From the NCBI GenBank assembly GCA_963740085.1, contig CAVUCU010000004.1:320001-384000 (forward strand): DNA of 64,000 nt. Direction: 5' to 3'. Source of the stretch: Nitrospirota bacterium (GTDB lineage Bacteria > Nitrospirota > UBA9217). The notes beneath the pieces are model-generated. The model was not told the DNA's origin, did no database searches, and saw nothing but the letters and a program-made list of their open reading frames with translations. The translations under genes were made by a program, and so were the position numbers. Below are positions 6,787-32,066 of this stretch, piece by piece; within the stretch, counting starts at the first letter, position 1; each line of letters starts with the position of its first letter.

Positions 6787-6841
6787 TTTAACAGAAATTT
6801 AACATTTCCGTAATACTGGTGACATATCCAGTATGTATAAT
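6787..6841 (+). promoter_or_regulatory. Pho-box-like promoter 4
   Basis: TTTAAC/TTTAAC/CGTAAT/TGACAT at 6787,6798,6809,6820; -10 TATAAT at 6836. Confidence 0.8.
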
Positions 6842-6873: not shown

Positions 6874-7182
6874 ATGATGGATAAAACATGCAGTCTTAAG
6901 TGTCCCGCATGCGCCTCTGAAGCGGTATATAAATACGGCCACTTAAAAAATGGAAAGCAGCGCCTCAAGTGCATTTTGTGCGGAAGACAGTTTGTCATTG
7001 GTATTTCGAGGCATGAAATGAGCAATCGTCCAACCTGTCCCCGATGCGGCCTTAAGATGCACCTTTACATGCATGACAAAATGGCGTTGCGATTCAGATG
7101 TTCGGAATATCCTGATTGTAAATCATATATAAAAATCCCTTATCAAAAGGAGGTCACCTCATATGAAAAGCTATGTTCATAA
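6874..7182 (+). CDS. Double zinc-ribbon protein (InsA-like ribbon plus topoisomerase-type C4 finger)
   Basis: CPAC..YKYG..GKQRLKCILCGRQF and CPRCG..FRCSEYPDC; no transposase catalytic domain. Confidence 0.7.
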   Translation: MMDKTCSLKCPACASEAVYKYGHLKNGKQRLKCILCGRQFVIGISRHEMSNRPTCPRCGLKMHLYMHDKMALRFRCSEYPDCKSYIKIPYQKEVTSYEKLCS

Positions 7183-7534
7183 TGTACCGGGAAGACTGCG
7201 GATAAAGAATGCCCTGTTTAAAAATGTCTCAATCCACTATGAAGTTCGAAAGGCCCTTGTGGATATGGGCCACGGCATCGGAGCCGCTGATTTCAATACG
7301 ACGACGGGCAGCCTTCTGATCAACTACAACCCGACAGAGGTCCATCATCAGGACATCCTGAGCGCCCTCGCGAGGGGAGGTTTTTATCATCCCGACAAAA
7401 CAATAACCAACGATCAGGTGATTCATCAGGCAACGTCCAAGGCATTCAATGTGGTAGCCAGGGCGGTTTCGGGGGCCTTCATCGACACTGCCCTGCAGGG
7501 CACTGGCTTGTCATTTCTGGCAATATTGCTATAA
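7163..7534 (+). CDS. HMA2-domain protein
   Basis: HNVPGRLRI and N..TGSLLINY motifs; GGAGG RBS. Confidence 0.75.
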   Translation: MKSYVHNVPGRLRIKNALFKNVSIHYEVRKALVDMGHGIGAADFNTTTGSLLINYNPTEVHHQDILSALARGGFYHPDKTITNDQVIHQATSKAFNVVARAVSGAFIDTALQGTGLSFLAILL

Positions 7535-7601: not shown

Positions 7602-8477
7602 TTGATGGCATCTCTATTCGAAAAAGTTGAAACGGCAAGCCGGGAGCATGACAATGCCAGATCAGGAGGTATGCCAGTGTCTCCGGAAATGTGCGACTCT
7701 GAATCGCATAGCTTCTCCCTGGCGATGCAAAGGAAGCTGGAGCGCTTTTATGACAGACTCAAGCCTTTTTGTGTAACAACCCTGGGAAGTACCGCCTGCC
7801 TTGAATTCCCCGTTGACTATCTTGAAACCCTAAACCGTCATAACGAAGCAACTATTCGCCGTAAGGAATGGGCTGAAATATATAAAAATCTCGGTGACGG
7901 AAAGCCGGAGTATGATCTTTGGCTGGACAAATATGAAAGCATTCTTCAAGATGCCGATGATTTGCCGATCATCGACCTTGGATGCGGCTATGGAAATGAC
8001 ACGCTCTATCTTCACGAAAGAGGATATAGGGTTGTTTCCTGTGATCTTTCGGCAGAGGCTCTCAAAAGGTTGACTTACTTCATCGCCGAGCCCGTGACAA
8101 AACAATTCGACATGCTGAACGGACTCCCTTTTGCAAAAGATTCGGCAAAGATTATCATCGCAGATCTCTCGCTGCACTATTTCTATTGGGAAGATACCAA
8201 AAGTGTCCTCAATGATATACGAAGGGTGCTCGTAAATGGCGGCCATCTTTTGTGCAGGGTTAATTCCATCAGGGATACGAGCCATGGGGCAGGACAGGGG
8301 CGACGCATAGAGAAAAACTATTTCGAGGTACAAGGTCGTCTAAAAAGGTTTTTTAACAGGGAATGCGTTGAAGATCTTTTCAAAGACTGGTCGATCGAGC
8401 ATATAAACGAGGCCCCCCTGTACAGATATGGGAAAGAGAAGATCCTCTGGGAAGTAGCCGTAAAAAAGGCGAGTTGA
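7602..8477 (+). CDS. Class I SAM-dependent methyltransferase with N-terminal extension
   Basis: IIDLGCGYG motif I, CDLS, LSLHYF, LVNGGHL. Confidence 0.8.
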   Translation: MMASLFEKVETASREHDNARSGGMPVSPEMCDSESHSFSLAMQRKLERFYDRLKPFCVTTLGSTACLEFPVDYLETLNRHNEATIRRKEWAEIYKNLGDGKPEYDLWLDKYESILQDADDLPIIDLGCGYGNDTLYLHERGYRVVSCDLSAEALKRLTYFIAEPVTKQFDMLNGLPFAKDSAKIIIADLSLHYFYWEDTKSVLNDIRRVLVNGGHLLCRVNSIRDTSHGAGQGRRIEKNYFEVQGRLKRFFNRECVEDLFKDWSIEHINEAPLYRYGKEKILWEVAVKKAS

Positions 8478-8965: not shown

Positions 8966-9226
8966 TTACAACTCCCGCGAATGGCCCCGCCGGCCTTCTA
9001 CGTCCGCTGTCGGCGTATTGTCACGCACAATGTCTTTTACCCTCTTTGAGACGAGCGCAGAGAGAAAGTATTTGATTCGCGCGGTCCGCGAATAATGCCT
9101 GAATACCATCCCATAGAGAGTCGATACGCGCTCCGTTGGCCGGTTCAGGCTCTGTGCAAGGTTTTCGATCGCGACCTGGTGATGACGTGGTCCAGACTCA
9201 ATATCCTGCAGAATACGTTTGTTCAT
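8966..9226 (-). CDS. DUF3562-like protein
   Basis: AIENLAQSLNRPTERVSTLY..ARIKYFLSALVSKRVK; ATG 9226 overlaps the CDF stop (ATGA). Confidence 0.7.
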   Translation of the reverse strand: MNKRILQDIESGPRHHQVAIENLAQSLNRPTERVSTLYGMVFRHYSRTARIKYFLSALVSKRVKDIVRDNTPTADVEGRRGHSREL

Positions 9227-10194
9227 GTTTCGTTCCCCCTTTCTAATCCCAAGGGTTCTTGCCAACAGGACGCAGGCTGCAGAAGCATTTGATCCTGCTG
9301 AAAGCCCGGAGTGTGCGCGTCGTGCACCGTCGTTGGAATGTGCTGCTGTATTTCATAACCCTCTATATAAATATCATATAAGCCGAATTTACCCCGCAAT
9401 AATTTCTTCATCCGTCTCATCGTATCACGGCCATATCCAGAACCATTCGTCCTGATCCGTGCCACCAGGATGATCTTATCCGGTGAAAGACCCCAGATAT
9501 GTATGTCCTTGATATGATGTATTTCGGGGAAAGTCTGCTGCAGAAATCTGACGATATCATCTGCATCTATGTTTGCAGGACTCCCTTCCATGAGGATCTT
9601 GATGCTGTCCCTGACCAAAAAAAAGGTCGGATACGCTGCCAGGCATCCGATCAGGATGCCGGCAAGGGGGTCCACAAAATACAGATGGGTATACCGTATG
9701 ATGACGGCAGCACCGATGACGCCCACCGAACCCAGAGTATCGTTCAGGATAAGAAGCAGCGCCCCCTTGATGTTAACATCCTTTGAGTAGCGGTAGAGTT
9801 GCACAAGACCGAAGGCATTCGCCATGAGACCTACAACGGCAATCATGAGGACCTTGTCCGCTTCAATGGGCTGGGGGTGCAGGATTTTCTGGAAGGCTTC
9901 CGTAAAAACATAGAACAGGATGAAGCCGACCAATATCCCGTTAAACAGACCGGAAAGCACTTTAGCGCGTTCGTACCCGAAGGTGTTTACCTTGTCCGGC
10001 CGTCGGCGGACGATCCTGGTCACCCATAACGCGATGATCTGACCTGAGACATTGACGGCCATGAACGACGCGTCCGTCACGAGGGCGATGCTGTGATAAT
10101 AAAGCCCCCCGAACAATTCCACGAAGAAATAGGAGATTGTTACAACAAGAACGAGCGTCTGGCCTTTTACGTGCGTTTCTTCTGTCTCGTGCAT
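9223..10194 (-). CDS. Cation diffusion facilitator (CzcD/ZitB-like)
   Basis: SIALVTDA, TFGYERAKVL, DTLGSVGVI, DPL, DIHIW motifs. Confidence 0.88.
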   Translation of the reverse strand: MHETEETHVKGQTLVLVVTISYFFVELFGGLYYHSIALVTDASFMAVNVSGQIIALWVTRIVRRRPDKVNTFGYERAKVLSGLFNGILVGFILFYVFTEAFQKILHPQPIEADKVLMIAVVGLMANAFGLVQLYRYSKDVNIKGALLLILNDTLGSVGVIGAAVIIRYTHLYFVDPLAGILIGCLAAYPTFFLVRDSIKILMEGSPANIDADDIVRFLQQTFPEIHHIKDIHIWGLSPDKIILVARIRTNGSGYGRDTMRRMKKLLRGKFGLYDIYIEGYEIQQHIPTTVHDAHTPGFQQDQMLLQPASCWQEPLGLERGNET

Positions 10195-10221
10195 GGTCCA
10201 CTGACCTTCCGTATAACTTTG

Positions 10222-11421
10222 TTATTCTTTCAAGAGAGAGGCCTTGTCAGTTAATTCCCAGGGCAGTCCGATATCCATTCTTCCTACATGACCGTACGCC
10301 GCGAGTTTACGATAAAAACCACCCTTGATCTGAGAGGGGAGGTGTCGAAGGTTGAACTGGCGTATGATCCCTGCCGGCCTAAAGTCGAAATGCTTCTGAA
10401 TAAGATCGGCGATGTTTTGATCAGATATTTTACCGGTCCCAAAGGTCTCTGCCTGGATGCTCACCGGTCGCGAAAATCCGATGGAATAGCTGAGCTGCAC
10501 CTCGCAGGCGGCGGCAAGTCCGGCTGCGACAACATTCTTTGCGGCATATCGAGCTGCATAGGCGCCGGTCCTGTCGATCCTTGAAGGGTCTTTCCCGCTC
10601 AAGGCTGCCCCGCTGATACGGGAGTATTCACCGTAGGTATCGATCGCGTTCTTTCTCCCGGTCAACCCTGAGTGCATGGCAGGACCGCCGCCGATAAAGG
10701 GTCCGTCGGGATTGATGAAGATCCGGGTGTGCTTATCAGGCTTGATCTCCTCGTCCTGAAAAACAGGACTCAGCACCGTTTCCCGGATATCGTCCTGGAG
10801 CCGTTTGGCATCGGGCCCCCCTTTGGGGGCCGTCCGCTTTTGGCTTGCAATAATGGTAATGCTGTGAACACGCGACGGTCTGCCGTCACGATATTCAATG
10901 CCGACCTGGGTCTTGCCGTCGGGCGCAAGATAGTCGAGCGTCTTCTGAAGCCGCACGGCCACAAGCTTCCTGGCAAGACGATGGGCGAGCCAGATGGGAA
11001 GCGGCATGAAGGCCGCGGTCTGATTGCAGGCAAAGCCGAACACCGTTACCTGGTTACGTGCAAGGATGCGTTCGATAACTTCCTCGGTCAGGGTACGTTC
11101 ATCGACCGACAAACTGCCGCCCGTAGGCACCTCGGTGAGGCTTGTTATGACGCTGCAGGTCTTTGCATTAAAGGCCCGCTCGTCATAGTCGACCTGGCTT
11201 ATGACCTGCCGGGCGATATTGGCATAATCGATCTTGGCCGAGGTGGCAAACCGCGCTGCGATGAAGACAATGGCCGTGGAAACAGCGCACTCGGCAATGA
11301 TATTCGCATAAGGGTCCTGCTGCAGAACATGATCGACGATCGCATCACTGATGATATCACAGAGCTTGTCAGGGTGGCCTTCGGTAACTGATTCCGAGGT
11401 GAACATGAAGTCCGTTTTCAT
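10222..11421 (-). CDS. metK: Divergent methionine adenosyltransferase paralogue
   Basis: FTSESVTEGHPDK, PDGKTQV, GLTGRK, SGKDP, AAYGH retained; GAGDQG signature absent. Confidence 0.85.
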   Translation of the reverse strand: MKTDFMFTSESVTEGHPDKLCDIISDAIVDHVLQQDPYANIIAECAVSTAIVFIAARFATSAKIDYANIARQVISQVDYDERAFNAKTCSVITSLTEVPTGGSLSVDERTLTEEVIERILARNQVTVFGFACNQTAAFMPLPIWLAHRLARKLVAVRLQKTLDYLAPDGKTQVGIEYRDGRPSRVHSITIIASQKRTAPKGGPDAKRLQDDIRETVLSPVFQDEEIKPDKHTRIFINPDGPFIGGGPAMHSGLTGRKNAIDTYGEYSRISGAALSGKDPSRIDRTGAYAARYAAKNVVAAGLAAACEVQLSYSIGFSRPVSIQAETFGTGKISDQNIADLIQKHFDFRPAGIIRQFNLRHLPSQIKGGFYRKLAAYGHVGRMDIGLPWELTDKASLLKE

Positions 11422-11448
11422 TGGGCACTCTCCATGCGCGATGCCTGC

Positions 11449-14400
11449 TCAGGTAACTGCGAAAACTTGATTTCCGTGCAATAACGGAACCGGTGTCGTT
11501 GAACTGCCATTCAGCGCAAACGGCGGAGCAGCTTTCTTCTTTGTCGCTTCATTGATGAGCAGCGGAGCGACAGCGGTCCCGATCGAAATCGCCAGGTCAA
11601 AGGGATTCAGCGGGCCCATTCCCAGGAAGCTCCGGAGGCCTGGAACGAACAGGGTAAGCGACTGTACTCCCAGCGAGGCTGTCAGGGCGACGGTAAGATA
11701 GTTGTTCGGTGCGAGCCGGTCAGCCTCAAAGATGCTATGGGTCTCGGAACGGTGGCTGATCGCGTGCAACAGCCCTGCCGTTACGAAGTTTGTGAAGGCC
11801 ATGCTGCTGGCCTGGGGACCCTGCCCGTAACGAAGGACACCGTAGCCGTATGCAGCCAGCGTCCCCGCAGAGATGGTGGACGCCTCGAAGAGAAGCCGTT
11901 TGAAGTCAGACGAATTGATAAGCTGCTCCTCGGGACTTCGCGGAGGCCGCAGAAGCACGTCGGGTTCAGGGGGCTCTTGGGCAAGGGCTATGCCGGGGAA
12001 GATGTCAGAGATCATGTTGATCCAGAGAAGCTGCATGACATTGAACGGCTGTCCCATGCCCGCGGCAAGAGAGGTGAACATGATCATGATCTCGGCCGTG
12101 TTCTTTGAGATCATGTATCTCACGGATTTTCGGAGATTGTTGTAAATCGTCCGCCCTTGGCTGATGGCCACGACCATGGTCTCGAGATTATCATCCTCGA
12201 GAACCACGTCCGCCACCTCTCGCGCCACATCGGTTCCCGTGTGACCCAGGGCGATCCCGATATCGGCTGCCTTGAGCGCGGGTCCGTCGTTGATGCCGTC
12301 TCCGGTCATGCCGATGACCTTTCCCGCTGACTGGAGCGCCTGGACGATCTGAAGTTTGTTTGCCGGGCTCACTCGTGAAAAGACATGCACCCGCCCGGCC
12401 AGAGCCTTCATTACCTCTGGTTCAAGCTGTGCGAGGTGAGTGGAATCAAGGATCTCCAATTCCTCGTCATTGCTGAGATTAAGTTCTTTCCCGATGGCAT
12501 AGGCAGTGGGACCCTGGTCCCCGGTAATCATCACCGTGTCGATCCCCGCTCGGTGGAACGTACTGATCAGGTTCTTAACACCCTTTCGCACCGTATCCGC
12601 CATACCGACGAGGCCGACCCAGACAAGTCCCTGCTGGAGGATCTCTTCGCTTTTTCTTGTGCTTTCGTCGCTCACCGCGTAAGTGACGGCAAGAACCCGG
12701 AGCGCTTCGCCGGCCATACGTTCATTATTCGCTTCGAAGACCGCGCGGGCATTGTCGTCCATTTCCAGTTGCCGGCCGTCCTTGATGTACCATTTGCATA
12801 GTGACAATACATCGGAGGGACTCCCCTTGAGGGCCAGAAGCCGCTGCCGGTCATTCGAACGGTGTATGGTGCTCATATACTGCCGGTCTTCCGATCGGTA
12901 GTTCAACTTCACGATCGGGTGCTGGGCCCGAAGCGAGTTGACATCCACACCGGCGCTGAGCGCAAGGTTCACGAGGGCGTTTTCCGTCGAGGAGCCCTCG
13001 ACGACGTAATCTCCTTCCAATTCTGATACTATCGATTCATTACAAAGCACCGACAGATGGAGCAGACGGAGGACATCCTCGTTCGTATAGGGATTGATGT
13101 TTTTCCCTTCCGCCATGATCCTGCCGTCAACAACATCGAGACGGCGCATGCCGGCATGCAACTGGACCACAGACATCTTGTTCATGGTGATTGTGCCGGT
13201 TTTGTCAAGACAGATGGTCTCGACCGAACCGAGCGTTTCGACGGCGTCAAGGTGACGGACGAGCACGTTCAGTCCCCTCATGCGCTTGATGCCGAGCGCG
13301 AGGGTCGTCGTCGTAACGGTCGGTAGCCCCTCAGGCACTGCGGCCACGGCCAGGGCAATGGAGGTCTTGAGCATCTGGAGAAAACCGTAACCGCGCAGAA
13401 TGCCTACAATGAACACGATGCCGCATACGGCGCAGGTGATATACACCAACTGGACCCCCAGGTGGTCCATCTGCCGTTCCAAGGGCGTATCGGGCGGCCG
13501 CGCCTCTCCCACCATGGTCTGGATCTTTCCGACCTCGGTAAATCGCCCTGTAGCCACGGCGACGGCGAGGCCTTGTCCTCCCGTGACCAGTGTGCCCATA
13601 TAGACCATGTTGGTGCGGTCGGCAAGGGGGATGTCCGGCACATGCAGTTCTTCGGTGGTTTTCATTACCGGCATGCTCTCGCCCGTCAATGCGGACTCAT
13701 CAATGCTCAGGTATTTTGCCTGTATGAGACGGGCGTCGGCCGCAATATAGCTTCCCGGTCTCAGTACGAGCATCTCGCCGGGAACGACCTCCTTGGCATC
13801 AATGGTCGTGATGACTCCGCCGCGGAGCACTATTGACGAAGGCTGTACGAGGCTCTTTAACCCATGGATGATCTTTTCCGTTTGGTTCTCGGTGTAATAC
13901 CCGATGGAGGAATTAATAACGACCACCCCCATGATCACGACGGCATCCGCAAATCCGCCTGTAGCAACGGAAATGCCCGCGGCAACACCAAGGAGAGCTA
14001 CGGGAAGGGACTTGAACTGATCGAAGAACATGCTCCAGCCGGAGCGGGGAACGGATTCGGGCAGAATGTTGGGACCATATTGGATGAACAAAAGACGGGC
14101 TGCTTCTTCGGACAGGCCTTCTGACGCCGAGGTGCCCCATCGCTGCAGCACATCCTTCCCTTCCATGCAGTGCCATTGCTCTTCCTGCTGGTCTTCGGCA
14201 TTGGCAACCTGTTTGCGAACGGTCCGCAGGCTAGGCGTTTTCTTGCCAGCAGTGGTAAGGTCGGGAGAGACGTCGGCGCGCACGGGCCGGACAACAACTG
14301 TTTCTTTCTTCTGCGACACAGCAGGGAACGGGTTTTTCTTCCCCTTGACCGGCTTGCCATTTTTGCGTTCGACTACGGACTTCAGGAGGGAAGCTACTGC

Positions 14401-14595
14401 TGATGCATGGTTGCCGTTCTGTGAATCGAACAGCACGAGAACGCTGCCCGTGAGGGTATTGATCGAAACGCTCAGGATCCACTTGTGCTGTGTGAGATGC
14501 TGCTCGATCCGCTGTTTCAACTGCTCTGAGCGATAAAGACCCTCTACCTTATAACGGGCCCGCCCTTTTACCGACGTATGAACGGCTTGGACCAC
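11449..14595 (-). CDS. Type IIA (Ca2+-type) P-type ATPase with N-terminal HMA2 domain
   Basis: TGES, VAAVPEGLP, DKTGT, GDGIND, TM5 SKNTAE, TM6 QLLWINMISD; N-terminal HTSVKGRARYK..NTLTGSVLV. Confidence 0.92.
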   Translation of the reverse strand: MVQAVHTSVKGRARYKVEGLYRSEQLKQRIEQHLTQHKWILSVSINTLTGSVLVLFDSQNGNHASAVASLLKSVVERKNGKPVKGKKNPFPAVSQKKETVVVRPVRADVSPDLTTAGKKTPSLRTVRKQVANAEDQQEEQWHCMEGKDVLQRWGTSASEGLSEEAARLLFIQYGPNILPESVPRSGWSMFFDQFKSLPVALLGVAAGISVATGGFADAVVIMGVVVINSSIGYYTENQTEKIIHGLKSLVQPSSIVLRGGVITTIDAKEVVPGEMLVLRPGSYIAADARLIQAKYLSIDESALTGESMPVMKTTEELHVPDIPLADRTNMVYMGTLVTGGQGLAVAVATGRFTEVGKIQTMVGEARPPDTPLERQMDHLGVQLVYITCAVCGIVFIVGILRGYGFLQMLKTSIALAVAAVPEGLPTVTTTTLALGIKRMRGLNVLVRHLDAVETLGSVETICLDKTGTITMNKMSVVQLHAGMRRLDVVDGRIMAEGKNINPYTNEDVLRLLHLSVLCNESIVSELEGDYVVEGSSTENALVNLALSAGVDVNSLRAQHPIVKLNYRSEDRQYMSTIHRSNDRQRLLALKGSPSDVLSLCKWYIKDGRQLEMDDNARAVFEANNERMAGEALRVLAVTYAVSDESTRKSEEILQQGLVWVGLVGMADTVRKGVKNLISTFHRAGIDTVMITGDQGPTAYAIGKELNLSNDEELEILDSTHLAQLEPEVMKALAGRVHVFSRVSPANKLQIVQALQSAGKVIGMTGDGINDGPALKAADIGIALGHTGTDVAREVADVVLEDDNLETMVVAISQGRTIYNNLRKSVRYMISKNTAEIMIMFTSLAAGMGQPFNVMQLLWINMISDIFPGIALAQEPPEPDVLLRPPRSPEEQLINSSDFKRLLFEASTISAGTLAAYGYGVLRYGQGPQASSMAFTNFVTAGLLHAISHRSETHSIFEADRLAPNNYLTVALTASLGVQSLTLFVPGLRSFLGMGPLNPFDLAISIGTAVAPLLINEATKKKAAPPFALNGSSTTPVPLLHGNQVFAVT

Positions 14596-14650
14596 GTACG
14601 ATTCCTCCCCATCTGAAATGGAAGCCGGTCACAAGCCAGGCAAGAACTGA

Positions 14651-15379
14651 TTAAGCCCGTTGCGACTTCGGCAGGGCGGTGCCAGCGACTTCTTTCACGC
14701 CTTCTACAACGCCGACCAGCATGTCCTTGACCGCCTTGACGGCTGTGTTGCCGATCAAAGATGCCGCATCGATCGCGCCCGTGACAGCAACCTTTGCAAC
14801 CTCCTCTGCATTCCCACCGACTTCCTTCGTGGCTTCGATCACGCCGTCTACGGCCCGCCGGGCAACCATGGCTACATCCGCACCGACCTCGGCCGCACCC
14901 TTGACAGCTCCTCTGACGGTCTGGCCTGCAACGGAAATCACGTCGCCGCCAACATCGCTCACTCCCATGATCACCCCTTTTGCAACGCTCTTGGTGCTCA
15001 GGATGAGGCCGGTGCCGACCTCTTCAGTAGCCTGAATGGCGCCCTTGACCACATCTTTCGTGATGTCAATTGCTTCGCCGGCGACCATGCCGGTTGCCCG
15101 CAGCGAATTGGAAACGGTGTTCCTGACAAGGCTGACTATCTCTGCTTCGATCTCGTTGATCCCCTTGAGACTGCTCACGACGCCCTCTTTCACGGTAGAG
15201 CCTGCTTTGCCGATGTCCTGGGCTGAAAATACAACTTCCGTGGCCTCTGCGCTTGTCATGTCTGTTCCTCCTCTTGTAGTCTTCGTTGTTGAGACTAGAT
15301 CATCCGATTTTGATGACGTGCCGCGCGGACTACGTTTCACGGACTTCTTCGTCGGCGCTTTTTGTTTTTGGTCACTCAT
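14651..15379 (-). CDS. Ala/Gly/Val-rich protein with ~22-aa amphipathic helical repeats
   Basis: Repeats KGAIQATEEVG / KGVIMGVSDVG / RGAVKGAAEVG / DGVIEATKEVG / TGAIDAASLIG; strong RBS at both 15379 and 15259. Confidence 0.75.
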   Translation of the reverse strand: MSDQKQKAPTKKSVKRSPRGTSSKSDDLVSTTKTTRGGTDMTSAEATEVVFSAQDIGKAGSTVKEGVVSSLKGINEIEAEIVSLVRNTVSNSLRATGMVAGEAIDITKDVVKGAIQATEEVGTGLILSTKSVAKGVIMGVSDVGGDVISVAGQTVRGAVKGAAEVGADVAMVARRAVDGVIEATKEVGGNAEEVAKVAVTGAIDAASLIGNTAVKAVKDMLVGVVEGVKEVAGTALPKSQRA

Positions 15380-15556
15380 AGTGTTACTCCTCCCAAGGTT
15401 TTATAATAATCGCATTACATTTTGTAGCCGGGTAGTTTGATAATTCCGGGGAACGGACTTCTGGTAAATGCCGGATTGTATTGCTTCTTAATGCCTTCGG
15501 AGCTAACAAGGCGGACACAGATGGAAGGGTTCCCGTCTTTCTCAGTGCTGCCAACG

Positions 15557-16045
15557 TTATTTCTTTTCGCCTTCTTTCACTATCTTTGAGTGGAGATTAT
15601 AAGCGTACCAGTACGCCGAGGACCACGGGATGGCCCCTCCATTCCCCGTCAGAATCTGCGCACTACCCGCCACAATCAGGGCTGCAACTGCAAAACCGCG
15701 CAGATCCATATCGCCGTCCGTGAGGTTCTGTATCTGCCGATCAATGCGCTTGAACGTCTCGCCAAGGTTTCGGTTAAGTTCTGCAGGGCGTACCCTGGAA
15801 CTCTTTTGTTCCTCTAAGGAAAAAAGATCCCCCGACCTTGCATACTCCGCAATCTCACGCACTGTCGTTTGGTGAAGCAAGAGTATACTCCCCGTACCCG
15901 GGTTCACCTCGATGGAGAGAACACCCGGACAAGCGGCAAGCTGATCCCCGTATGACTTCAGTGCCGCTAGGTTGCCTTTTTGTGAGGGGACCCTGATCCG
16001 TAATCTCCCGGTTGAAGTATGGGCGATGACGGCAGCCGGGATCAT
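15557..16045 (-). CDS. HMA2-domain membrane protein (FezC-like architecture)
   Basis: HTSTGRLRIR, NPGTGSILL, C-terminal hydrophobic hairpin ending PWSSAYWYA. Confidence 0.78.
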   Translation of the reverse strand: MIPAAVIAHTSTGRLRIRVPSQKGNLAALKSYGDQLAACPGVLSIEVNPGTGSILLLHQTTVREIAEYARSGDLFSLEEQKSSRVRPAELNRNLGETFKRIDRQIQNLTDGDMDLRGFAVAALIVAGSAQILTGNGGAIPWSSAYWYAYNLHSKIVKEGEKK

Positions 16046-16392
16046 GACGTGGCTGGCCTGGGCCTGCGTTTGGAGATTGCAGCCGTTACTGCAACCGGTG
16101 CCGCAGCCGGTGCCGCAACCGTGTCATTCACCGCTTCTGCTGCAGCCGCAGTCGTCTCGGCCAGTTCCGCCTTAGCTTCAGCCACAATATCTTCCGTAAT
16201 TTCAGCGATCTCGGCAAAGGCTTCCTTGCCGCGTTCATACATCTGCATACCTCCTTTTATCGCGGCTTTTGCCAGCGGCTTTGCGATCGTGGCAAACAGA
16301 GGAATGACTACGGGCGCCAGTACTGCGGCGCCGATACCGATTGCCAAACCGGTAATAAGACTACCTTTCAATCCACTATCTAACAGTCCCAT
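16042..16392 (-). CDS. DUF5132-family protein
   Basis: GLAIGIGAAVLAPVVIP..KPLAKAAIKGG..YE..EDIVAEAKAE; ATGA overlap with the next gene. Confidence 0.78.
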   Translation of the reverse strand: MGLLDSGLKGSLITGLAIGIGAAVLAPVVIPLFATIAKPLAKAAIKGGMQMYERGKEAFAEIAEITEDIVAEAKAELAETTAAAAEAVNDTVAAPAAAPVAVTAAISKRRPRPATS

Positions 16393-16503
16393 AATAGCAT
16401 GATCTCCTTTCTATAAAATTAATTGTAGTACTACAATGATGCAAAGTCTATCTTCTCTTTCATTACTTACCTACTAGTACTTGAGCAGCCAGTTCATTGC
16501 GCA

Positions 16504-16899
16504 TTACGCTTCAACACGGTTTTTTTTTGGTGCTTTCATGCGTGCCCTGGAGCCAGTCTTTGAACGCTTTGCAATGCTCTTGCCCTCGAGTATCCCGATC
16601 TGCGCTTCAAGGTCCTTGATTCGGGCCATGATCTCTTTGACACCTGCATTGAGAGCAGGGTTTTTGGCTTTGGCACTGCTTATGAGAACATACGTCTTGG
16701 CGCCGAGGTCGGTAATCGCTTCGTGGATCCGTGTCTTGAGTGTCAATACCTTGTACTGACGTTTCTTTTCTTTCGTGAGTTCCCCGGCTTTCTTCTGCAT
16801 CTCGACGGCGCCTTGTTTCACTGCCGCCATGCTTTTTTCCAGCCCTTGTTGCACGTCTTTTTTTATCTTGTTCCAGTTGAAGCCTTCCAAATATCCCAT
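16504..16899 (-). CDS. Hypothetical coiled-coil protein
   Basis: 131-aa basic helical ORF with GGAGG RBS. Confidence 0.65.
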   Translation of the reverse strand: MGYLEGFNWNKIKKDVQQGLEKSMAAVKQGAVEMQKKAGELTKEKKRQYKVLTLKTRIHEAITDLGAKTYVLISSAKAKNPALNAGVKEIMARIKDLEAQIGILEGKSIAKRSKTGSRARMKAPKKNRVEA

Positions 16900-19149: not shown

Positions 19150-19204
19150 CTTAACACAAATTTAATGTTATCTTCATACTATTGTAACAACAAAAGTATA
19201 AGAT
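19150..19204 (+). promoter_or_regulatory. Pho-box-like promoter 6 (proximal, probably leaderless)
   Basis: CTTAAC/TTTAAT/CTTCAT/TGTAAC at 19150,19161,19172,19183; -10 TAAGAT at 19199, 7 bp before the ATG. Confidence 0.78.
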
Positions 19205-19211
19205 ATTTTCA

Positions 19212-19904
19212 ATGCTTCTGTGCGATTTTCATATTCACACTACCTTTTCGGACGGGTCGGTTGAGATAAGGAAAACGATCGATCTTTTCGGACAGGCAGG
19301 CTTTGATGCCATCGCCATTACGGACCATGTCGTGAACGGCGATAACGTGATGGGTAAGTTCGCGCGACAGTTCAACCTGTCAATTCGGGGCGATAATTTT
19401 GATGAATATCTTTCCGCAGTCAGGTCGGAGGCGGCGCGGGCATGGGACAAATACGGGATGCTCGTCATCCCGGGTGTCGAGATCAGCAAGAATTACATAT
19501 CGAAGGATCATTCAGCCCATCTCCTCATTCTCGATATCAAAGAATTCATCCCCGCCTGCATGGACTACGAGGAGATCTTTCTCGAAGCTAAGCGCCAGGA
19601 AACCCTGACCGTTGCGTGTCACCCTCACCATACCCCGGATATGGTAAACAAAGACACGCTCTATCTCTGGAACAACCGAGACAAGTATGCAAAATATATC
19701 GATGCCTGGGAGATCGCGAACCGGGATGACGTTTTCAACGTGATCAGTCTGAAAAAATATCCTTATATTGCCAACAGTGATTTCCACAAAGTGCGCCACC
19801 TCTACTCGTGGAAAACACTGCTGAACTGCGAAAAGAACATCGACTCGGTCAAAAACTGCATAAAGCACAATAAAGGAGTCGCAATCACGCTCTTCAGGAA
19901 TTGA
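19212..19904 (+). CDS. PHP-domain phosphoesterase
   Basis: DFHIHT..SDG, AITDH, PGVEI, HP, NSDFH. Confidence 0.88.
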   Translation: MLLCDFHIHTTFSDGSVEIRKTIDLFGQAGFDAIAITDHVVNGDNVMGKFARQFNLSIRGDNFDEYLSAVRSEAARAWDKYGMLVIPGVEISKNYISKDHSAHLLILDIKEFIPACMDYEEIFLEAKRQETLTVACHPHHTPDMVNKDTLYLWNNRDKYAKYIDAWEIANRDDVFNVISLKKYPYIANSDFHKVRHLYSWKTLLNCEKNIDSVKNCIKHNKGVAITLFRN

Positions 19905-19954
19905 ATGATGATGGATCAAACATCTCATAAGCGCCACACTCAGGGAGGAACCGC

Positions 19955-21193
19955 ATGACCATATTTACCATATGTGCTGCGATCTCAATTGTAGGGATCA
20001 TTCTCTACCTGCTTCAGATTGGAGCAACGTATTCACTCTTGAGAAAAAAGCCGAAACCGGACGCAGGAATAACGGCGAGCAAAAAGGATCATACCCCGTC
20101 GGTGTCGATCTTGAAACCCCTTAAGGGACTTGACGACAATCTATTTGACAACCTCGAAAGCTTTTGCACCCAGGATTATCCTGAGCACGAAGTTCTTTTT
20201 AGTCTTCAGGACCTCAATGATCCAGCCTATAAAGTAGCAAAAAAAGTACAAGACAAATACCCTGACCGGGACATATCTATCATAGTTGAAAAGTGCAATG
20301 CCGGTCTCAACCCGAAAGTAAACAACCTCATCCCGGCATATCGCAAAGCCCGTCATCCCTATATACTTATCAGCGACAGCAATGTTATGGTTGGCAACCG
20401 CTATCTTCGGGAGATTGCCCGATATACCCGGGACCCGTCGGTCGGGCTTGTCAGCAACCTCATCCAGGGCGTTGGCGGTCGCAGTTTCGGCGCAATTCTT
20501 GAGAACCTTCATCTCAATTCTTTCATTATGGGCAGCGTCACCTTTCTGGACAGGTTCCTTGGAATGCCCTGCGTTATTGGAAAGTCCATGCTCATGAAAA
20601 AAGTCGATCTGGAGGCGTTGGGAGGGCTGATTGCCTTCAAAGATATCCTGGCCGAGGACTTCATTATTGGCAGAGAGATGCAGAAGAGCGGGAAACAAGT
20701 GGTCCTGTCGAACTATTTGGTCAGCAATGTCAATGAGTACTGGGGCGTCAAGAGATTTCTGAATAGACATACGCGATGGGGCAAACTCAGGTGGAAGATC
20801 GGCGGAGCAAAATATTTGTCCGAACTGCTTGCCAATCCGGTAGTTATGGCGACATTGCCCATTCTGCTCAAGGGGCCGTCGCGCGAAACACTCTCATTTG
20901 CGGCCTTCATAGGACTTATCAAGGTCCTCGGCGATTTCATGCTCGGAAGAAAGATCGAATCAGCAGCACATGCGGATTTTCACAAACAATCACCACTCCT
21001 CTATTTCCTCTCTCCGATCAAGGATCTGTTCATCGGGGTACTGTGGTTCATCCCTCTTTTGAGTTCAACGGTAGTCTGGCGGGGAAATCGGTATGTGATC
21101 GGACGCGATTCCCGTTTGTCGCTCTGTCCGGAGACCGGCGTATGGTCCTGGGGCTATCGTATCACGGACAGTATTCGCGCCCGGATAGCATAA
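19955..21193 (+). CDS. Ceramide glucosyltransferase/HpnI-like glycosyltransferase (GT21/GT2 type)
   Basis: N-terminal TM, VSILKPLKG, GLNPKVNNL, ISDSN, LAEDF, RHTRW, VVWRG. Confidence 0.88.
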   Translation: MTIFTICAAISIVGIILYLLQIGATYSLLRKKPKPDAGITASKKDHTPSVSILKPLKGLDDNLFDNLESFCTQDYPEHEVLFSLQDLNDPAYKVAKKVQDKYPDRDISIIVEKCNAGLNPKVNNLIPAYRKARHPYILISDSNVMVGNRYLREIARYTRDPSVGLVSNLIQGVGGRSFGAILENLHLNSFIMGSVTFLDRFLGMPCVIGKSMLMKKVDLEALGGLIAFKDILAEDFIIGREMQKSGKQVVLSNYLVSNVNEYWGVKRFLNRHTRWGKLRWKIGGAKYLSELLANPVVMATLPILLKGPSRETLSFAAFIGLIKVLGDFMLGRKIESAAHADFHKQSPLLYFLSPIKDLFIGVLWFIPLLSSTVVWRGNRYVIGRDSRLSLCPETGVWSWGYRITDSIRARIA

Positions 21194-21230
21194 GCGCGTG
21201 ACGGATCGATCAGTCAAGGTAGGGGGAACT

Positions 21231-21647
21231 GTGCAGCGGAATAAACGAAAAGTCCTTTTGATGGAAGATGAAGAATTACTGAGGTCGGTTACGCAGAGCG
21301 CTCTCGAAAAAAAAGGATATTCAGTACAGGTGATGGGAAACGGTGAAGAAGCAATCGAGGGTTATCGAAAAGCAAAAGAGGCCGGTTGTCCCTATGATGC
21401 AGTAATTGTGGATCTGAACATCCCGCACGGCAAGGGGGGCAAGGAAACAATCAAAGGTCTGCTTGAACTGGACCCTGATGTTAAGGTCATTGTATCGAGC
21501 GGCGACATTCTCGATCCGGCGCTGACGAACTTCAGGGATTACGGCTTTATCGGGAAACTGACAAAACCCTTCACCCGCGAAGAGCTGTTCGGGGTACTTC
21601 ACCGGGCGCTCGATGCGAGGGAAGGGGCTGCGTCAAAAAGATTCTAA
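21231..21647 (+). CDS. Single-domain response regulator
   Basis: LLMEDEE, VDLNIP, SSG, KPF. Confidence 0.85.
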   Translation: MQRNKRKVLLMEDEELLRSVTQSALEKKGYSVQVMGNGEEAIEGYRKAKEAGCPYDAVIVDLNIPHGKGGKETIKGLLELDPDVKVIVSSGDILDPALTNFRDYGFIGKLTKPFTREELFGVLHRALDAREGAASKRF

Positions 21648-21711
21648 ATAATTGATCGGACGGAATGAGCTGTGGAACGAGGCATCATGCTGTTGGAGGG
21701 GGTAATGCAAA

Positions 21712-23559
21712 ATGATGAATCAAGTACAGACAACCCGGATCTTCAACCTCAACCTTGCTTTCAGAGGCCCGTTGCAGAACAGACTTCTTTCACTGGTTAA
21801 GGGGCCGATTGAACATGTCATTGGTTTGCAACGGTTGAACCTTTTTTACGATGACGTAAGCAGGATGCCTGACAAACGTCCGTTCCCGGACAAGGTCCTG
21901 GATCGCTTGGGCGTGCTCTACGATATTCCTGAAGAGGACCTCTCGCGGGTCATGATTCCCAAAGGTCCTGTGATCGTTGTGGCAAATCATCCCTTTGGGC
22001 TCATAGAAACCGTTATCCTTGCTTCGATCCTACGCTCGATGCGCTGCGATGTCAAGTTCATGGCAAACTCTCTGTTGAACGCGATACCGGAAATACGGGA
22101 CTTATTGATATCCGTGAATCCTTTTCCGGGAAAGACTTCGGTGCGAGACAACATCAGGCCGCTCAGAGAATCCATCCAATGGGTCAGGAACGGAGGCATG
22201 CTCGTGGTATTTCCCGCTGGCACGGTCTCTCACTTTGGTGCACGGAAAGGCGTCATCACCGATCCTGAATGGAGCCTGAGTATAGCGCGCATTATCAGGA
22301 AAACCGGGGCGCCGGTGCTTCCGGTGTTCTTTCAGGGGACGAACAGCGCGGCATTTCATATAGCGGGCATGGTACATCCTGTTCTTCGCACGGTCATGCT
22401 GCCGAATGAACTGTTTAACAAGAACAGCAGAAAGATTCAGGTGCGCGTCGGCGATCTTGTGCCAATTGGGAAGTTAGAGTCCTTTGATCAGGATGACGAT
22501 ATGACTGCGTACCTGCGGTTGCGAACTTATATACTGGAGTATCGCGGCCATAAAGAAGAAGTGCCCAGCATTGGGGCATTTATTCGAAAGGCAAAAACCG
22601 AGGCGTTTGGCGAGATCATGCCGCCCCAGAACCCGGAAGTCATGGCCGAGGAGATCCGCAGGCTGATGCCGAGCCAGACACTCGTTGAGAGCAACGAGCA
22701 TGTCGTGATCCAGGCGACGACCGACCAGATACCTCACCTCATGCTCGAGATCGGCAGGCTGCGGGAGGTCACCTTCCGTGTCGTGGGCGAGGGGACGGGA
22801 AAGGCTGTTGATATTGACCGGTTCGATAGCTCCTATACCCATCTCTTTATCTGGAATCGGGTAAAAAAAGAAGTGGTCGGCGCCTATCGCCTCGGCAGGA
22901 CCGATGAGATCATCAGACAAAAGGGAGTGAGCGGCCTTTACACGAGTTCCTTATTTCGTTATAAACCAGGATTTTTCGAACAGATGGGGCCTGCTCTGGA
23001 AATGGGACGGTCCTTTATCCGGCTGGAATACCAAAAATCCTTTGCACCTCTCCTGCTTCTCTGGAAAGGCATCGGCAGATTCGTTGTCGAAAACCCGCAA
23101 TATAAAACCCTCTTTGGTCCCGTAAGCATCAGTGATGAGTACCGGCAGCTGTCAAGGCAACTTCTGGTCAGTTACCTGAAAATGACCCGGTACCGCAGCG
23201 ATATGGCCGGCTTCGTCAAACCCAAAAATCCCTTACTTGCAAAACCGCTAAAAGGCTGGGACATCGATGCCGCGGTCCGGCTTCTGAAGGACGACGTGGA
23301 GAACATATCGGAGTTGATCTCCTGCGTGGAATCAGACCGCAAAGGCGTCCCGATCCTGCTGAAGCAATATCTCAAGCTGGGTGGCGAGATCGCGGGTTTC
23401 AATGTCGATACCGCATTCGGAAATGTCGTTGATGGTCTGATCATCGTCGATTTGACGAAAACTGAACCGCGAATACTGGATCGGTACCTTGGCAAGGACG
23501 GCGCCCGCATGTTTCTTGACCATCATGAAGCAATGAAACGGGATTGTCTTGTCGCCTGA
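21712..23559 (+). CDS. Bifunctional lysolipid O-acyltransferase / GNAT N-acyltransferase (OlsF-like aminolipid synthase)
   Basis: N-terminal PlsC-type NHPFG and FPAG; C-terminal OlsB-like IGRLREVTFR..GEGTG..D.DRFD, VGAYR, EMGRSF. Confidence 0.82.
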   Translation: MMNQVQTTRIFNLNLAFRGPLQNRLLSLVKGPIEHVIGLQRLNLFYDDVSRMPDKRPFPDKVLDRLGVLYDIPEEDLSRVMIPKGPVIVVANHPFGLIETVILASILRSMRCDVKFMANSLLNAIPEIRDLLISVNPFPGKTSVRDNIRPLRESIQWVRNGGMLVVFPAGTVSHFGARKGVITDPEWSLSIARIIRKTGAPVLPVFFQGTNSAAFHIAGMVHPVLRTVMLPNELFNKNSRKIQVRVGDLVPIGKLESFDQDDDMTAYLRLRTYILEYRGHKEEVPSIGAFIRKAKTEAFGEIMPPQNPEVMAEEIRRLMPSQTLVESNEHVVIQATTDQIPHLMLEIGRLREVTFRVVGEGTGKAVDIDRFDSSYTHLFIWNRVKKEVVGAYRLGRTDEIIRQKGVSGLYTSSLFRYKPGFFEQMGPALEMGRSFIRLEYQKSFAPLLLLWKGIGRFVVENPQYKTLFGPVSISDEYRQLSRQLLVSYLKMTRYRSDMAGFVKPKNPLLAKPLKGWDIDAAVRLLKDDVENISELISCVESDRKGVPILLKQYLKLGGEIAGFNVDTAFGNVVDGLIIVDLTKTEPRILDRYLGKDGARMFLDHHEAMKRDCLVA

Positions 23560-24691
23560 ACGCAACGCGACCATGGACACCGGCAATGATGCCGTGGAGC
23601 CGACGCTGTCGCGCCGGCCGTCATGGATAGGTCCGCTCTTCAGAAAAATGATATTTCTCATACCGCTCGGGGTTATTGGTAATGTGGTCTTTGTTCTGCT
23701 TGCGACCGACGGGTCTCTGTTCCGCTCCGTGCCCGGTTTTTCACCGGGATATATTATCATCGCCATGCTTCTGAGCATTACCCCCTGGTTCATGGGGTCG
23801 CTTCGGCTGCTGCTCTGGAGCAGGTTCCTTGGGAACAGATTTCGTTATCGTGATACGTTCAGGATAGCGCTCGGAGCGGAGCTCGGCGCGGCTATAAGCC
23901 CGCCCATGATCGGAGGAACCGCTGTAAAAACCTGCATGCTGATGCAGCAAGGCCTCTCCAGCGGCGCGGCTCTGTCTCTAACCGTGATCGAGAGCGTTGA
24001 GGAAAGTTTGTTCTTCCTCCTCATGGTACCGCTCGCCATCACGCTTTCGTCATCCTGGGACCTGCCGGTGATACAGGGTCTGCTGTCCGGCATCCGCCAT
24101 ACATCGCCCCGGATGTTCCTTGCGGGAAGCGGGGTTGCCTGTACTGCTGTCCTTGTGCTGGCACGACCGCGCTTTCGAACGCTAGTAATGCGGTTTCGGC
24201 CGTCGGCTCGCTTCATAACAATGATAGGGTCGGCATATCATAGGTTTATCCTGACATGGAGAACCATCATGTGCAGCGGAAAATCGGTCTTTGCTCTGAC
24301 CTTTGTGTTGACAGCTGCCCAGTGGATCTGCCGGTATGCCGTAATTTCCCTGCTGCTCATGAGCCTTGGGCTCCCGGCACAACCTGTTCTCTTCATGTCA
24401 CTGCAGGTCCTTGTGTTCGCACTCATGTCGTTCATACCGACGCCGGGAGGGGCAGGCGGCGCTGAAGCGGTATTCTATCTCTTTTACCGGCCCTTTCTCG
24501 CCGCGGATTCCATCGGCGCGGTGATCATGGGATGGCGATTTCTTACGTTTTACTTTCTCCTGCTTCTTGCCGCGGTCCTTTTCCTGATCATGAAAAGGCC
24601 GAAGCCGGAATCATTGTCTGTCATTCAGGACAGCGGATCGGAGCAAGCCGGGCCGACGGCGCATCGGGTTACTGGTCTTGCCGGAGAATAA
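23549..24691 (+). CDS. Lysylphosphatidylglycerol-synthase TM region (UPF0104/MprF flippase-like) protein
   Basis: Multi-TM; ISPPMIGG, IPTPGGAGGAE, WRFLTFY. Confidence 0.82.
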   Translation: MSPERNATMDTGNDAVEPTLSRRPSWIGPLFRKMIFLIPLGVIGNVVFVLLATDGSLFRSVPGFSPGYIIIAMLLSITPWFMGSLRLLLWSRFLGNRFRYRDTFRIALGAELGAAISPPMIGGTAVKTCMLMQQGLSSGAALSLTVIESVEESLFFLLMVPLAITLSSSWDLPVIQGLLSGIRHTSPRMFLAGSGVACTAVLVLARPRFRTLVMRFRPSARFITMIGSAYHRFILTWRTIMCSGKSVFALTFVLTAAQWICRYAVISLLLMSLGLPAQPVLFMSLQVLVFALMSFIPTPGGAGGAEAVFYLFYRPFLAADSIGAVIMGWRFLTFYFLLLLAAVLFLIMKRPKPESLSVIQDSGSEQAGPTAHRVTGLAGE

Positions 24692-27036: not shown

Positions 27037-27093
27037 TTTAACAAAATCTTAATAAACTTGTAACAATCATGTAACAATTGAATGGTATAAGAT
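27037..27093 (+). promoter_or_regulatory. Pho-box-like promoter 8 (pstS)
   Basis: TTTAAC/CTTAAT/TGTAAC/TGTAAC at 27037,27048,27059,27070; TATAAGAT at 27086. Confidence 0.88.
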
Positions 27094-27124: not shown

Positions 27125-28135
27125 ATGAAAAGAAGTTTAATGGTTGCATTGGTAGTAATAGGCCTGTTGTCTTTCAATCTGGCACAGGCGGAAGAGATGC
27201 TGAACGGCGCAGGGGCAACGTTTCCGTATCCAGTTTATTCTGCATGGGCCAATGAATACAACAAGGTAACCGGCGTGAAGCTGAACTACCAGTCCATCGG
27301 CTCTGGCGGCGGCATCAAACAGATCACCGAGCGGACAGTTGACTTCGGCGCATCGGATAAGCCGCTCAAGCCCGAAGAGCTTGCCAAGGACAACCTGCTC
27401 CAGTTCCCGGCAGTCATCGGCGGCGTTGTGCCGGTGGTGAATATCCCGGGAATCAAGGCCGGAGAATTACGGCTCGATTCAGAAACAGTTTGTAAAATCT
27501 ACCTTGGTGAAATCAAAAACTGGAACGACAAGGAGATCAAGGGACTGAACCCAAAGCTGAATCTCCCGGGCAATGAAATCACCGTTGTGCACCGCTCCGA
27601 TGGTTCGGGTACGACGGCCATCTTTACGGATTATTTGAGCGATGTTTGCCCAGCCTGGAAGGAAAAAGTCGGCACCGGCACGTCGGTGAGCTGGCCCACC
27701 GGCATCGGCGGCAAAGGGAACGAGGGGGTCGCCAATTATGTTCAGCAGCAGATGAACTCGATCGGGTATGTGGAATTCGCCTATGCCAAGCAGAACAACC
27801 TGACCCACACGGTCCTGAAGAACCACGCCGGCACCTTTGTGGAGCCGAGCTTCGAGAGTTTTGAGGACGCGGCGGCAACGGCCAGCTTCGACCCCAAGAA
27901 GGACTTCTATCTTTGGCTGAATGATGCCCCGGGGAAAAAATCCTGGCCGATCGCAGGCGCGACGTTCATTCTTCTTGCCAAGGAGAAAAAGGACTCAAAC
28001 ATGAAGGTGGTAAAATTCTATGACTGGGCGTTCAAGAACGGGGACGCAAAGGCGAAAGAGCTCATTTACGTGCCGCTTCCAAAATCGCTCAAAGACAAGA
28101 TAAAAGGCTACTGGAAGTCGAACGGTATTCAGTAA
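27125..28135 (+). CDS. pstS: Phosphate ABC transporter substrate-binding protein
   Basis: Signal peptide, GAGATFP, NYQSIGSGGG, DFGASD, RSDGSGTT, GKGNEGV. Confidence 0.96.
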   Translation: MKRSLMVALVVIGLLSFNLAQAEEMLNGAGATFPYPVYSAWANEYNKVTGVKLNYQSIGSGGGIKQITERTVDFGASDKPLKPEELAKDNLLQFPAVIGGVVPVVNIPGIKAGELRLDSETVCKIYLGEIKNWNDKEIKGLNPKLNLPGNEITVVHRSDGSGTTAIFTDYLSDVCPAWKEKVGTGTSVSWPTGIGGKGNEGVANYVQQQMNSIGYVEFAYAKQNNLTHTVLKNHAGTFVEPSFESFEDAAATASFDPKKDFYLWLNDAPGKKSWPIAGATFILLAKEKKDSNMKVVKFYDWAFKNGDAKAKELIYVPLPKSLKDKIKGYWKSNGIQ

Positions 28136-28170
28136 ACCCTTTGCAAAGCGATAATACCCTTTAACCAATA

Positions 28171-28209
28171 CGGGTCAGGTATATATACTGAAAATACCTG
28201 ACCCGTTTT
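28171..28209 (+). terminator. Stem-loop after pstS (terminator or mRNA stabiliser)
   Basis: CGGGTCAGGTAT...ATACCTGACCCG followed by TTTT. Confidence 0.7.
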
Positions 28210-28250
28210 CTTTCTTTATTTATCTTTCGGACAAGCGGAAAGGTCATGCA

Positions 28251-30791: not shown

Positions 30792-30833
30792 AAGAAGGGA
30801 ACAGGGTTCAGTCACCCTTATCCTGCATCCGCA

Positions 30834-30880
30834 ACACTGTACCCTGACACCGGGACCCTAAACCCTGAACCCTGAACCCT
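30834..30880. repeat. Heptamer tandem repeat (ACCCTGA-like)
   Basis: acactgt accctga caccggg accctaa accctga accctga accct between pstB and phoU. Confidence 0.7.
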
Positions 30881-30899
30881 ATTACTCAAGGAGTATTCC

Positions 30900-32040: not shown

Positions 32041-32066
32041 AATTTATGAATAAAAGGAGAAGTGCA

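Follow-up and report, generated by a model that had tools for sequence, protein, structure and literature searches.

A MetK-like protein with replaced methionine ligands is linked to a CoBaHMA-bearing P-type ATPase in Nitrospirota and other phyla

S-adenosylmethionine (SAM) synthetase, the methionine adenosyltransferase (MAT) that bacteria encode with metK (EC 2.5.1.6), is usually treated as a housekeeping enzyme with one function. Laboratory point mutants of the E. coli enzyme, D118N and D238N, are reported (Taylor and Markham, J Biol Chem 2000) to make about a thousand-fold less SAM while keeping most of their tripolyphosphatase (PPPase) activity. Here we describe a natural family that carries N118 and H238 and in which, unlike in these mutants, the whole methionine pocket is rebuilt and kept so by selection. 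Its gene lies in a 64,000-nucleotide stretch of a Nitrospirota genome (GTDB lineage Bacteria; Nitrospirota; UBA9217; assembly GCA_963740085.1, contig CAVUCU010000004.1, positions 320,001 to 384,000), hereafter called the window, where a MetK-like protein of 399 amino acids (10222-11421, minus strand) is encoded directly behind a P-type ATPase. From sequence comparison and gene order, we consider it highly probable that this protein is not a SAM synthetase and that it is functionally tied to the ATPase.

One account of MAT structure describes D163 and D238 as the residues that bind the hydroxyls of the ribose; D238 binds the amino group of methionine as well and is the sole methionine ligand common to bacterial and archaeal MATs, E55 adds to binding of the amino group, and Q98 and K269 hold the carboxylate (PMC3853416). 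Like roles are given to Q98, D238 and E55 in a second source (PMC1282579). The MetK-like family has the three-domain fold and the Mg-triphosphate ligands of bacterial MetK; it differs from it in lacking E55, Q98, D238, K269 and the GAGDQG motif, in forming a clade of its own, in always standing behind a P-type ATPase and in being found alongside a true metK.

Two further systems bear on the surrounding genes. The window ATPase shares its core motifs with the P2A/SPCA Ca2+(/Mn2+) ATPases (SPCA1, LMCA1, SERCA), to which it adds a CoBaHMA domain at the N-terminus and some 140 residues of basic linker. A recent preprint identifies Pfam HMA_2 as the CoBaHMA domain and reports that ccyA, the calcyanin gene, is flanked in Microcystis by genes for CoBaHMA and DUF5132 proteins (bioRxiv 10.1101/2024.07.07.602159). 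The window cluster shares these two families with the ccyA neighbourhood of cyanobacteria in which amorphous calcium carbonate forms inside the cell, which is a resemblance only: a 242-residue protein of the cluster has an 11-residue repeat, not the glycine zipper described for calcyanin, and, in contrast to the ccyA strains, most carriers of the module are anaerobes or methanotrophs, from which carbonate inclusions are not reported. No calcyanin gene, which would have a triple GlyZip C-terminal domain, came to light at these loci, although no search was aimed at one. One carrier, Chlorogloeopsis fritschii PCC 6912, is a ccyA strain that was examined for carbonate and Ca-polyphosphate inclusions (PMC8890360). 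The word "adenosylmethionine" has 0 occurrences, and no MetK-like gene is mentioned, in these two sources (bioRxiv 10.1101/2024.07.07.602159 and PMC8890360). A full-text literature search, with most subscription journals outside its reach, found no paper on a MetK paralogue associated with a P-type ATPase or with tripolyphosphatase, and queries on DUF5132, DUF3562 and HMA_2 within the same scope found none on the MetK-like family.

Residue pattern and conservation of the MetK-like protein

All three MetK domains (S-AdoMet_synt_N, _M and _C) are matched by the MetK-like open reading frame (ORF; Pfam, E values 1e-32 to 4e-55), and its score on TIGR01034, the metK equivalog model, is 375.8 bits, with a cut-off of 309.4; one other clade member scores 307.1, under the cut-off. 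An AlphaFold2 model, for which 53 diverse clade members served as input, has a mean pLDDT (predicted local distance difference test) of 93.2 and a predicted template modelling (TM) score of 0.92, and Foldseek comparison with solved MATs, including those of E. coli and L. plantarum, gave TM scores of 0.87-0.96. Sequence identity to the bacterial MATs in PDB entries 1RG9, 1P7L and 7R3B is 41-42%, and the ESM Atlas returned generic MAT clusters only. By fold and by hidden Markov model score the protein thus counts as a MetK, while by the test of its methionine ligands it does not.

Residues were compared in a 262-row MAFFT alignment that included the MetK of the annotated E. coli K-12 locus (mature E. 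coli numbering is used here, with window numbers in brackets), and HMMER pairwise alignments to MAT chains in the PDB agreed with the assignments. Retained are H14 (H16), D16 (D18), K17 (K19), E42 (E44), D163 (D168), K165 (K170), F230 (F242), R244 (R256), K245 (K257), K265 (K277) and D271 (D283), and the GHPDK, GRK and SGKD motifs and the Mg-triphosphate ligands are the same as in canonical MetK. E55 is replaced by R57 (GGEI to AARF), D238 by H250 (AMHSG) and K269 by R281; GAGDQG has become LARNQV, with G117 replaced by R122, D118 by N123 and G120 deleted; and in the Q98 gating loop QSPD is gone and the loop is rebuilt, about 11 residues longer than in canonical MetK. Further changes are C239 to S, G258 to S270 and a 7-residue insert near the C-terminus. 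The alignments reproduced in full the list of kept and changed residues that the original prediction had drawn up by eye, to which they added C239S and G258S. Because all methionine ligands are replaced, with a reversal of charge (E to R, D to H, D to N, G to R/K), binding of methionine by this protein is, judging from sequence, very unlikely.

The replacements are neither peculiar to the window nor a matter of chance. Among the close homologues, which form at least 120 clusters at 74-97% identity in a word-indexed search and which, where named in NCBI and JGI sources, are called MetK, R55, H238, R269 and S258 were invariant in 120/120 rows, N118 was present in 118/120 and R/K117 in 117/120, and the triphosphate and Mg ligands (H14, D16, K17, K165, R244, K245, K265 and D271) were kept in at least 119/120. 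The loci of the first scan carried the same replaced residues in 20/20 cases, save for V55 in 2. H238 and R269 are the sharpest discriminators: they are found in 98% of 53 diverse clade members, and 0/80 canonical MetKs have either of them. Both sets (n = 53 and n = 80) share G13, H14, P15, D16, K17, R244, K245, K265 and D271, each with a conservation of 95% or more.

Reading frames of the MetK-like gene are intact at all loci, and pairwise ratios of nonsynonymous to synonymous substitution (dN/dS) between the window gene and six relatives are 0.05-0.14. The original prediction had named simple decay as the alternative in case the substitutions were unconserved among ATPase-linked homologues; R55, H238 and R269 are instead fixed in 120/120. 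A decaying, functionless duplicate, which would account for the loss of hallmark family residues, is refuted by these conservation data, and we regard its probability as negligible: the replacement residues are invariant across more than 70 species in at least nine phyla, and the fold is predicted with confidence. Since the replacements are fixed, dN/dS is low and the clade is separate, the gene is under purifying selection and not decaying.

Sequences with H238 and R269 reach well past the close family, as seen in an exhaustive search of representatives followed by alignment. In a maximum-likelihood tree of 117 rows (quick IQ-TREE mode, midpoint-drawn, rows of 360-430 residues only), the 26 H238/R269 rows formed one side of a branch, apart from canonical MetK, with a Shimodaira-Hasegawa-like approximate likelihood ratio (SH-aLRT) support of 95-96; the ATPase-linked core had a support of 98, and the canonical MetK of the window's own genome grouped among the D238/K269 rows. 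A more distant H238/R269 branch retains neither K165 nor F230, and adenosine binding is therefore no family-wide constraint. A scan aimed at the most distant H238/R269 branch found no close relatives (best identity 50%) and yielded only two new loci, L128 and L136. Among NCBIfam and Pfam models, none sets the clade apart from MetK.

A canonical metK, scoring 604 bits, is present on another contig (contig 1) of the window's genome, and the MetK-like protein scores about 230 bits lower on TIGR01034. In 12 paralogue-bearing genomes that were checked, a full canonical metK was found in 10 (464-605 bits) and a contig-end fragment in an eleventh (G039). The original prediction had held that the window gene is not a housekeeping SAM synthetase and that a separate metK and a tree against canonical MetK should bear this out; the canonical gene elsewhere, the conserved substitutions, the signs of purifying selection and the separate clade all agree with it.

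The paralogue is patchily distributed. At 75% identity or more it occurs in 7/40 relatives of the window genome (2/8 of the same genus, 6/24 of the same family and 1/16 from other families of the phylum). The MetK-like family as a whole spans more than 70 species in at least nine phyla: its carriers include Nitrospirota, Thermodesulfobacteriota and other former Deltaproteobacteria, Planctomycetota, Acidobacteriota, Myxococcota and Binatia, Alphaproteobacteria (Rhodoplanes, Methylocystis, Geminicoccaceae, Rhodospirillales), Gammaproteobacteria (Chromatiaceae, Methylococcaceae) and Cyanobacteria (seven genera or families). Chlorogloeopsis fritschii PCC 6912, Methylocystis sp. L43, Rivularia sp., Crocosphaera sp. 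and Vacuolonema are cultured carriers. Chlorogloeopsis fritschii PCC 6912 has two pairs of ATPase and MetK-like genes (L188, at G001:C1:1580000-1597000, and L018); in its second pair the spacer is about 600 nt long and position 118 is Asp. DNA reads covering 9200-16400 of the window came from 20 sequencing runs on soil, sediment, wetland and peat metagenomes, each covering a small share (at most 0.34), and no RNA run was listed as covering this interval.

Linkage to a CoBaHMA-bearing P-type ATPase

The partner gene (11449-14595, minus strand) encodes a P2-type cation ATPase of 1048 amino acids that bears a CoBaHMA (Pfam HMA_2) domain at its N-terminus, together with a basic linker. The spacer between the two genes (11422-11448, minus strand) is 27 bp long, as originally stated, with the ATPase stop codon starting at 11449 and the MetK-like ATG at 11421, and it holds a Shine-Dalgarno-like GGAGAG eight bases before that ATG; co-transcription of the two genes is therefore likely.

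From three scans of one-genome-per-species contigs and one further retrieval we obtained 73 distinct H238/R269 loci. Two of these begin inside the MetK-like gene, leaving 71 with upstream DNA, and in 71/71 an ATPase homologue lies directly upstream on the same strand (in six of them only its C-terminal piece is visible, at a contig end). The estimated spacer is below about 80 nt in all but four loci. Among canonical metK loci from the same scans, 0/40 had an adjoining ATPase; 3/40 had matches to unrelated P-type ATPases (32-36% identity) at a distance of about 5 kb or more. Adjacency to the ATPase is the defining feature of the MetK-like family; the original prediction had recorded it correctly for the window and undervalued it.

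The ATPase's nearest solved relatives are human SPCA1 (499 bits) and Listeria LMCA1 (463 bits), to which it aligns over residues 181-1020 with the motifs PEGLP, DKTGT, TGES and GDGxND and the M6 Asn/Asp. It is P2-type by its best matches and scores under every NCBIfam equivalog cut-off (610.5 against 798.3 for TIGR01522, the PMR1 type, and 531.6 against 703.4 for TIGR01116, the SERCA type), and we therefore make no equivalog call. Residues 4-63 match HMA_2 (PF19991) with 39.4 bits, above the cut-off of 30. All of the aligned ATPase N-termini (37/37) carry the CoBaHMA signature G11/R12/R14 unchanged, and the domain is present on nearly all full-length linked ATPases. In the most divergent linked pair, that of a Geminicoccaceae metagenome-assembled genome (MAG; L128), the MetK-like protein is 41% identical to that of the window and has G117 and H118, and the ATPase aligns only from residue 141, apparently without a CoBaHMA domain.

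Across 63 loci, the identities of the ATPase and of the MetK-like protein to the window proteins co-vary (Spearman 0.88), as would be expected from co-inheritance and equally from plain shared ancestry. Unfailing adjacency, spacers that are short in nearly all loci and this co-variation would all suit a non-catalytic or barely catalytic subunit that senses nucleotide or polyphosphate and that binds and gates the CoBaHMA-ATPase. We hold this to be quite unlikely, as the catalytic and Mg-binding residues, at least 95% conserved, would be needless for a mere binding module. A complex prediction of the MetK-like protein with ATPase residues 1-185, run without controls, scored 0.00 against a mark of 0.32 and speaks neither for nor against contact.

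Neighbouring genes and the phosphate-regulon context

Neighbour families were defined by clustering the ORFs of 70 loci and the window (71 sources) under strict coverage, with antisense shadow ORFs ignored by eye. Upstream of the ATPase, on the minus strand, the window encodes a 116-residue DUF5132 protein with an N-terminal hydrophobic segment (16042-16392; 41/71 sources), a 162-residue CoBaHMA protein with a C-terminal Gly-rich hydrophobic hairpin (15557-16045; HMA_2 52.2 bits; 45/71 sources) and the 242-residue protein, whose 11-residue repeat of the type V.G.I....EV runs through about 17 turns (14651-15379; no Pfam match; 29/71 sources). Rows of this repeat, such as VKGAIQATEEV and VDGVIEATKEV, are of the kind found in amphipathic surface-binding helices. 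Just upstream of the DUF5132 gene lies a Lys/Glu-rich, probably coiled-coil ORF of 131 amino acids with no Pfam match (16504-16899, minus strand). Directly downstream of the MetK-like gene, also on the minus strand, is a ZitB-like divalent-cation transporter of the cation diffusion facilitator (CDF) type (9223-10194), which is found in 8/71 sources only and is therefore lineage-specific; a 99-residue DUF3562 protein (8966-9265, minus strand; 19/71 sources) lies downstream as well. Elsewhere, a second CoBaHMA type occurs just downstream in 9/71 sources, mostly cyanobacteria, and MgtE and phosphatidylserine decarboxylase in 4/71 each.

A small divergent operon on the plus strand (6874-7534) begins with a zinc-ribbon protein (6874-7182; family in 19/71 sources) and continues with a 123-residue CoBaHMA protein (7163-7534) whose HMA_2 score, 28.6 bits, is just under the cut-off of 30. 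Behind it lies the gene of a class I SAM-dependent methyltransferase (7602-8477, plus strand) with weak TehB/UbiE-like matches, a neighbour found in 2/71 sources, the window and L009 only. The cluster genes at 10-16 kb have a G+C content of 0.55-0.57 versus 0.44-0.50 in the flanks. G+C falls to 0.41-0.45 over 32001-36226, which includes a phage-type integrase gene (34937-36226) and may be the edge of an island.

None of the CoBaHMA, DUF5132 and phosphate-regulon context had been part of the original prediction. The genes pstS, pstC, pstA, pstB and phoU lie in the window at 27125-31577, 11 kb from the cluster. Within this operon pstA (29134-30030, plus strand) is apparently frameshifted, with its N-terminal part in the frame of 28910-29632 and its C-terminal part in that of 29365-30030, either by a real break or by an assembly error. 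A Syntrophus MAG (L039) has pstS, pstC, pstA, pstB, phoU and a PhoR-like kinase gene downstream of its MetK-like gene, all in the same orientation. Pst or PhoU genes were found within 8 kb in 6/70 related loci versus 0/40 canonical loci; a looser blastp clustering placed PstS at 8 loci. PhoR/PhoB-like pairs stand beside 11 loci, and the best models for the 3 that were checked were PnpS, PhoR and PhoB, with scores somewhat below cut-off.

Between the cluster and the pst operon of the window runs a set of lipid-remodelling genes (19212-24691, plus strand). They encode a PHP-domain protein and three proteins for phosphorus-free or modified lipids, namely an HpnI-like GT21 glycosyltransferase (247 bits against a cut-off of 310), a bifunctional acyltransferase of OlsF-like type (397 bits against 620) and an LPG-synthase-TM membrane protein. 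The motif TTAACA-N5-TTAACA, with up to 2 mismatches, occurs 13 times in the window versus 2.06 expected, and 0/100 shuffles reached 13. Three TTAACA-like hexamers spaced by 11 bp, and thus Pho-box-like, lie upstream of the zinc-ribbon/CoBaHMA operon (6788-6815, plus strand), and an array of the same type lies upstream of pstS (27038-27076, plus strand); a TTAACA-like array also stands upstream of the PHP-domain and GT21 genes (19151-19167, plus strand). In other genomes, triple TTAACA arrays were found before the small CoBaHMA gene (L044, L050) and before pstS (L016, L042, L050). These arrays may be Pho boxes, by a likeness to PhoP/PhoB-type sites that we treat as a lead and not as a result.

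A candidate role in cation and phosphate metabolism

Based on these findings, we propose that the protein is a methionine-independent enzyme acting on triphosphate chains, the fixed partner of the pump in a module for divalent cations and (poly)phosphate; this reading has, in our judgement, an even chance of being correct. On this view a MAT-fold enzyme has been neofunctionalised and has ceased to make SAM. The Mg-triphosphate machinery (H14, D16, K17, E42, K165, R244, K245, K265, D271) is whole, with the adenine-stacking Phe and one ribose Asp also kept in the ATPase-linked sub-clade, and the methionine amino and carboxyl ligands have given way to basic or neutral residues (E55R, G117R/K, D118N, D238H, K269R) behind a rebuilt gating loop. 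Such an enzyme could cleave or bind a triphosphate chain without methionine, hydrolysing tripolyphosphate (PPPi) or short polyphosphate, or converting ATP to adenosine and either PPPi or pyrophosphate plus phosphate, and the new basic side chains may either bind an anion or replace the positive charge by which SAM ordinarily triggers the PPPase step. Produced from the same operon as a CoBaHMA-fused, P2-type (Ca2+/Mn2+-like) ATPase, it would serve divalent-cation and (poly)phosphate homeostasis as that pump's fixed partner, a role suggested by the pump, the CoBaHMA and DUF5132 proteins, the 11-residue repeat, the cation carriers and the phosphate-regulon neighbours. The original prediction of a repurposed enzyme handling ATP or tripolyphosphate, or using another acceptor, agrees with the Mg-triphosphate site being intact and the pocket basic. 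Gene linkage, context, fold, clade and the conserved residue pattern are observed, whereas the activity, its substrate, the end of SAM synthesis and the part played in the cell are inferred.

Several observations weigh against this proposal. The protein passes the TIGR01034 cut-off and is hence a MetK by NCBI's rule, and in one paralogue-bearing genome (G015, a MAG that is 89% complete) a canonical metK was not found. Both points, together with a class I methyltransferase gene 1.7 kb away, would suit a second SAM synthetase isozyme for local SAM supply, for instance to that methyltransferase. We consider such an isozyme highly improbable: all four methionine-binding side chains are replaced, including the Asp common even to archaeal MATs, and the score lies far under that of the genome's canonical MetK. 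Local supply for the adjacent methyltransferase was ruled out, because that neighbour is confined to two of the 71 sources.

Nucleotide binding itself may be altered, since D238 is also a ribose ligand, and H14 (the catalytic acid in cleavage of the C5'-O bond), F230 and D163 are kept, which fits adenosyl transfer to a new nucleophile equally well. In that case the C5'-O bond would be cut, and the new basic residues would position a small or anionic acceptor (such as phosphate, a thio-acid or an inorganic anion) to receive the adenosyl group, with a hitherto unknown 5'-substituted adenosine and PPPi as products. All triphosphate ligands are likewise kept in the ATPase-linked core clade, and the change of three acidic pocket residues to R, N and H, with G117 becoming R/K, is a reversal of charge and not a random loss. 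However, the ribose-hydroxyl ligand D238 is lost, no genes making or using a special metabolite are among the recurrent neighbours, and K165 and F230 are not kept in the distant H238/R269 branch; on balance we judge such an adenosyltransferase unlikely.

The proposed triphosphate-chain enzyme also leans on its context, where further points count against it. The ion of the pump is taken to be Ca2+/Mn2+-like by homology only. The phosphate link is an association only, with Pst genes near in 6/70 loci and two-component genes below cut-off. In the window no TTAACA-N5-TTAACA (up to 2 mismatches) lies upstream of 16899 or 16392, and across the 70 loci the motif does not cluster before the DUF5132/CoBaHMA start of the main operon.

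A broader picture, which we regard as speculative and unlikely, is that the CoBaHMA-P2 ATPase, the MetK-like protein, the CoBaHMA hairpin proteins, DUF5132 and a coat-like protein with 11-residue repeats form a horizontally spread module, not recognised before, that is controlled by the phosphate regulon and builds or mobilises an intracellular store of divalent cations and (poly)phosphate. Its dedicated enzyme for tripolyphosphate or polyphosphate ends would then be the MetK-like protein, or the maker of a new adenosyl compound, and the basic patches of CoBaHMA would bind polyphosphate and not lipid.

If our proposal is true, the MAT fold would have its first case of a function changed in nature, and hundreds of annotations would have to be corrected. 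The clade would also offer a handle on the ligands of CoBaHMA and on the coupling of divalent-cation transport to phosphate economy or to mineral and polyphosphate inclusions, and its cultured carriers make the function directly testable.

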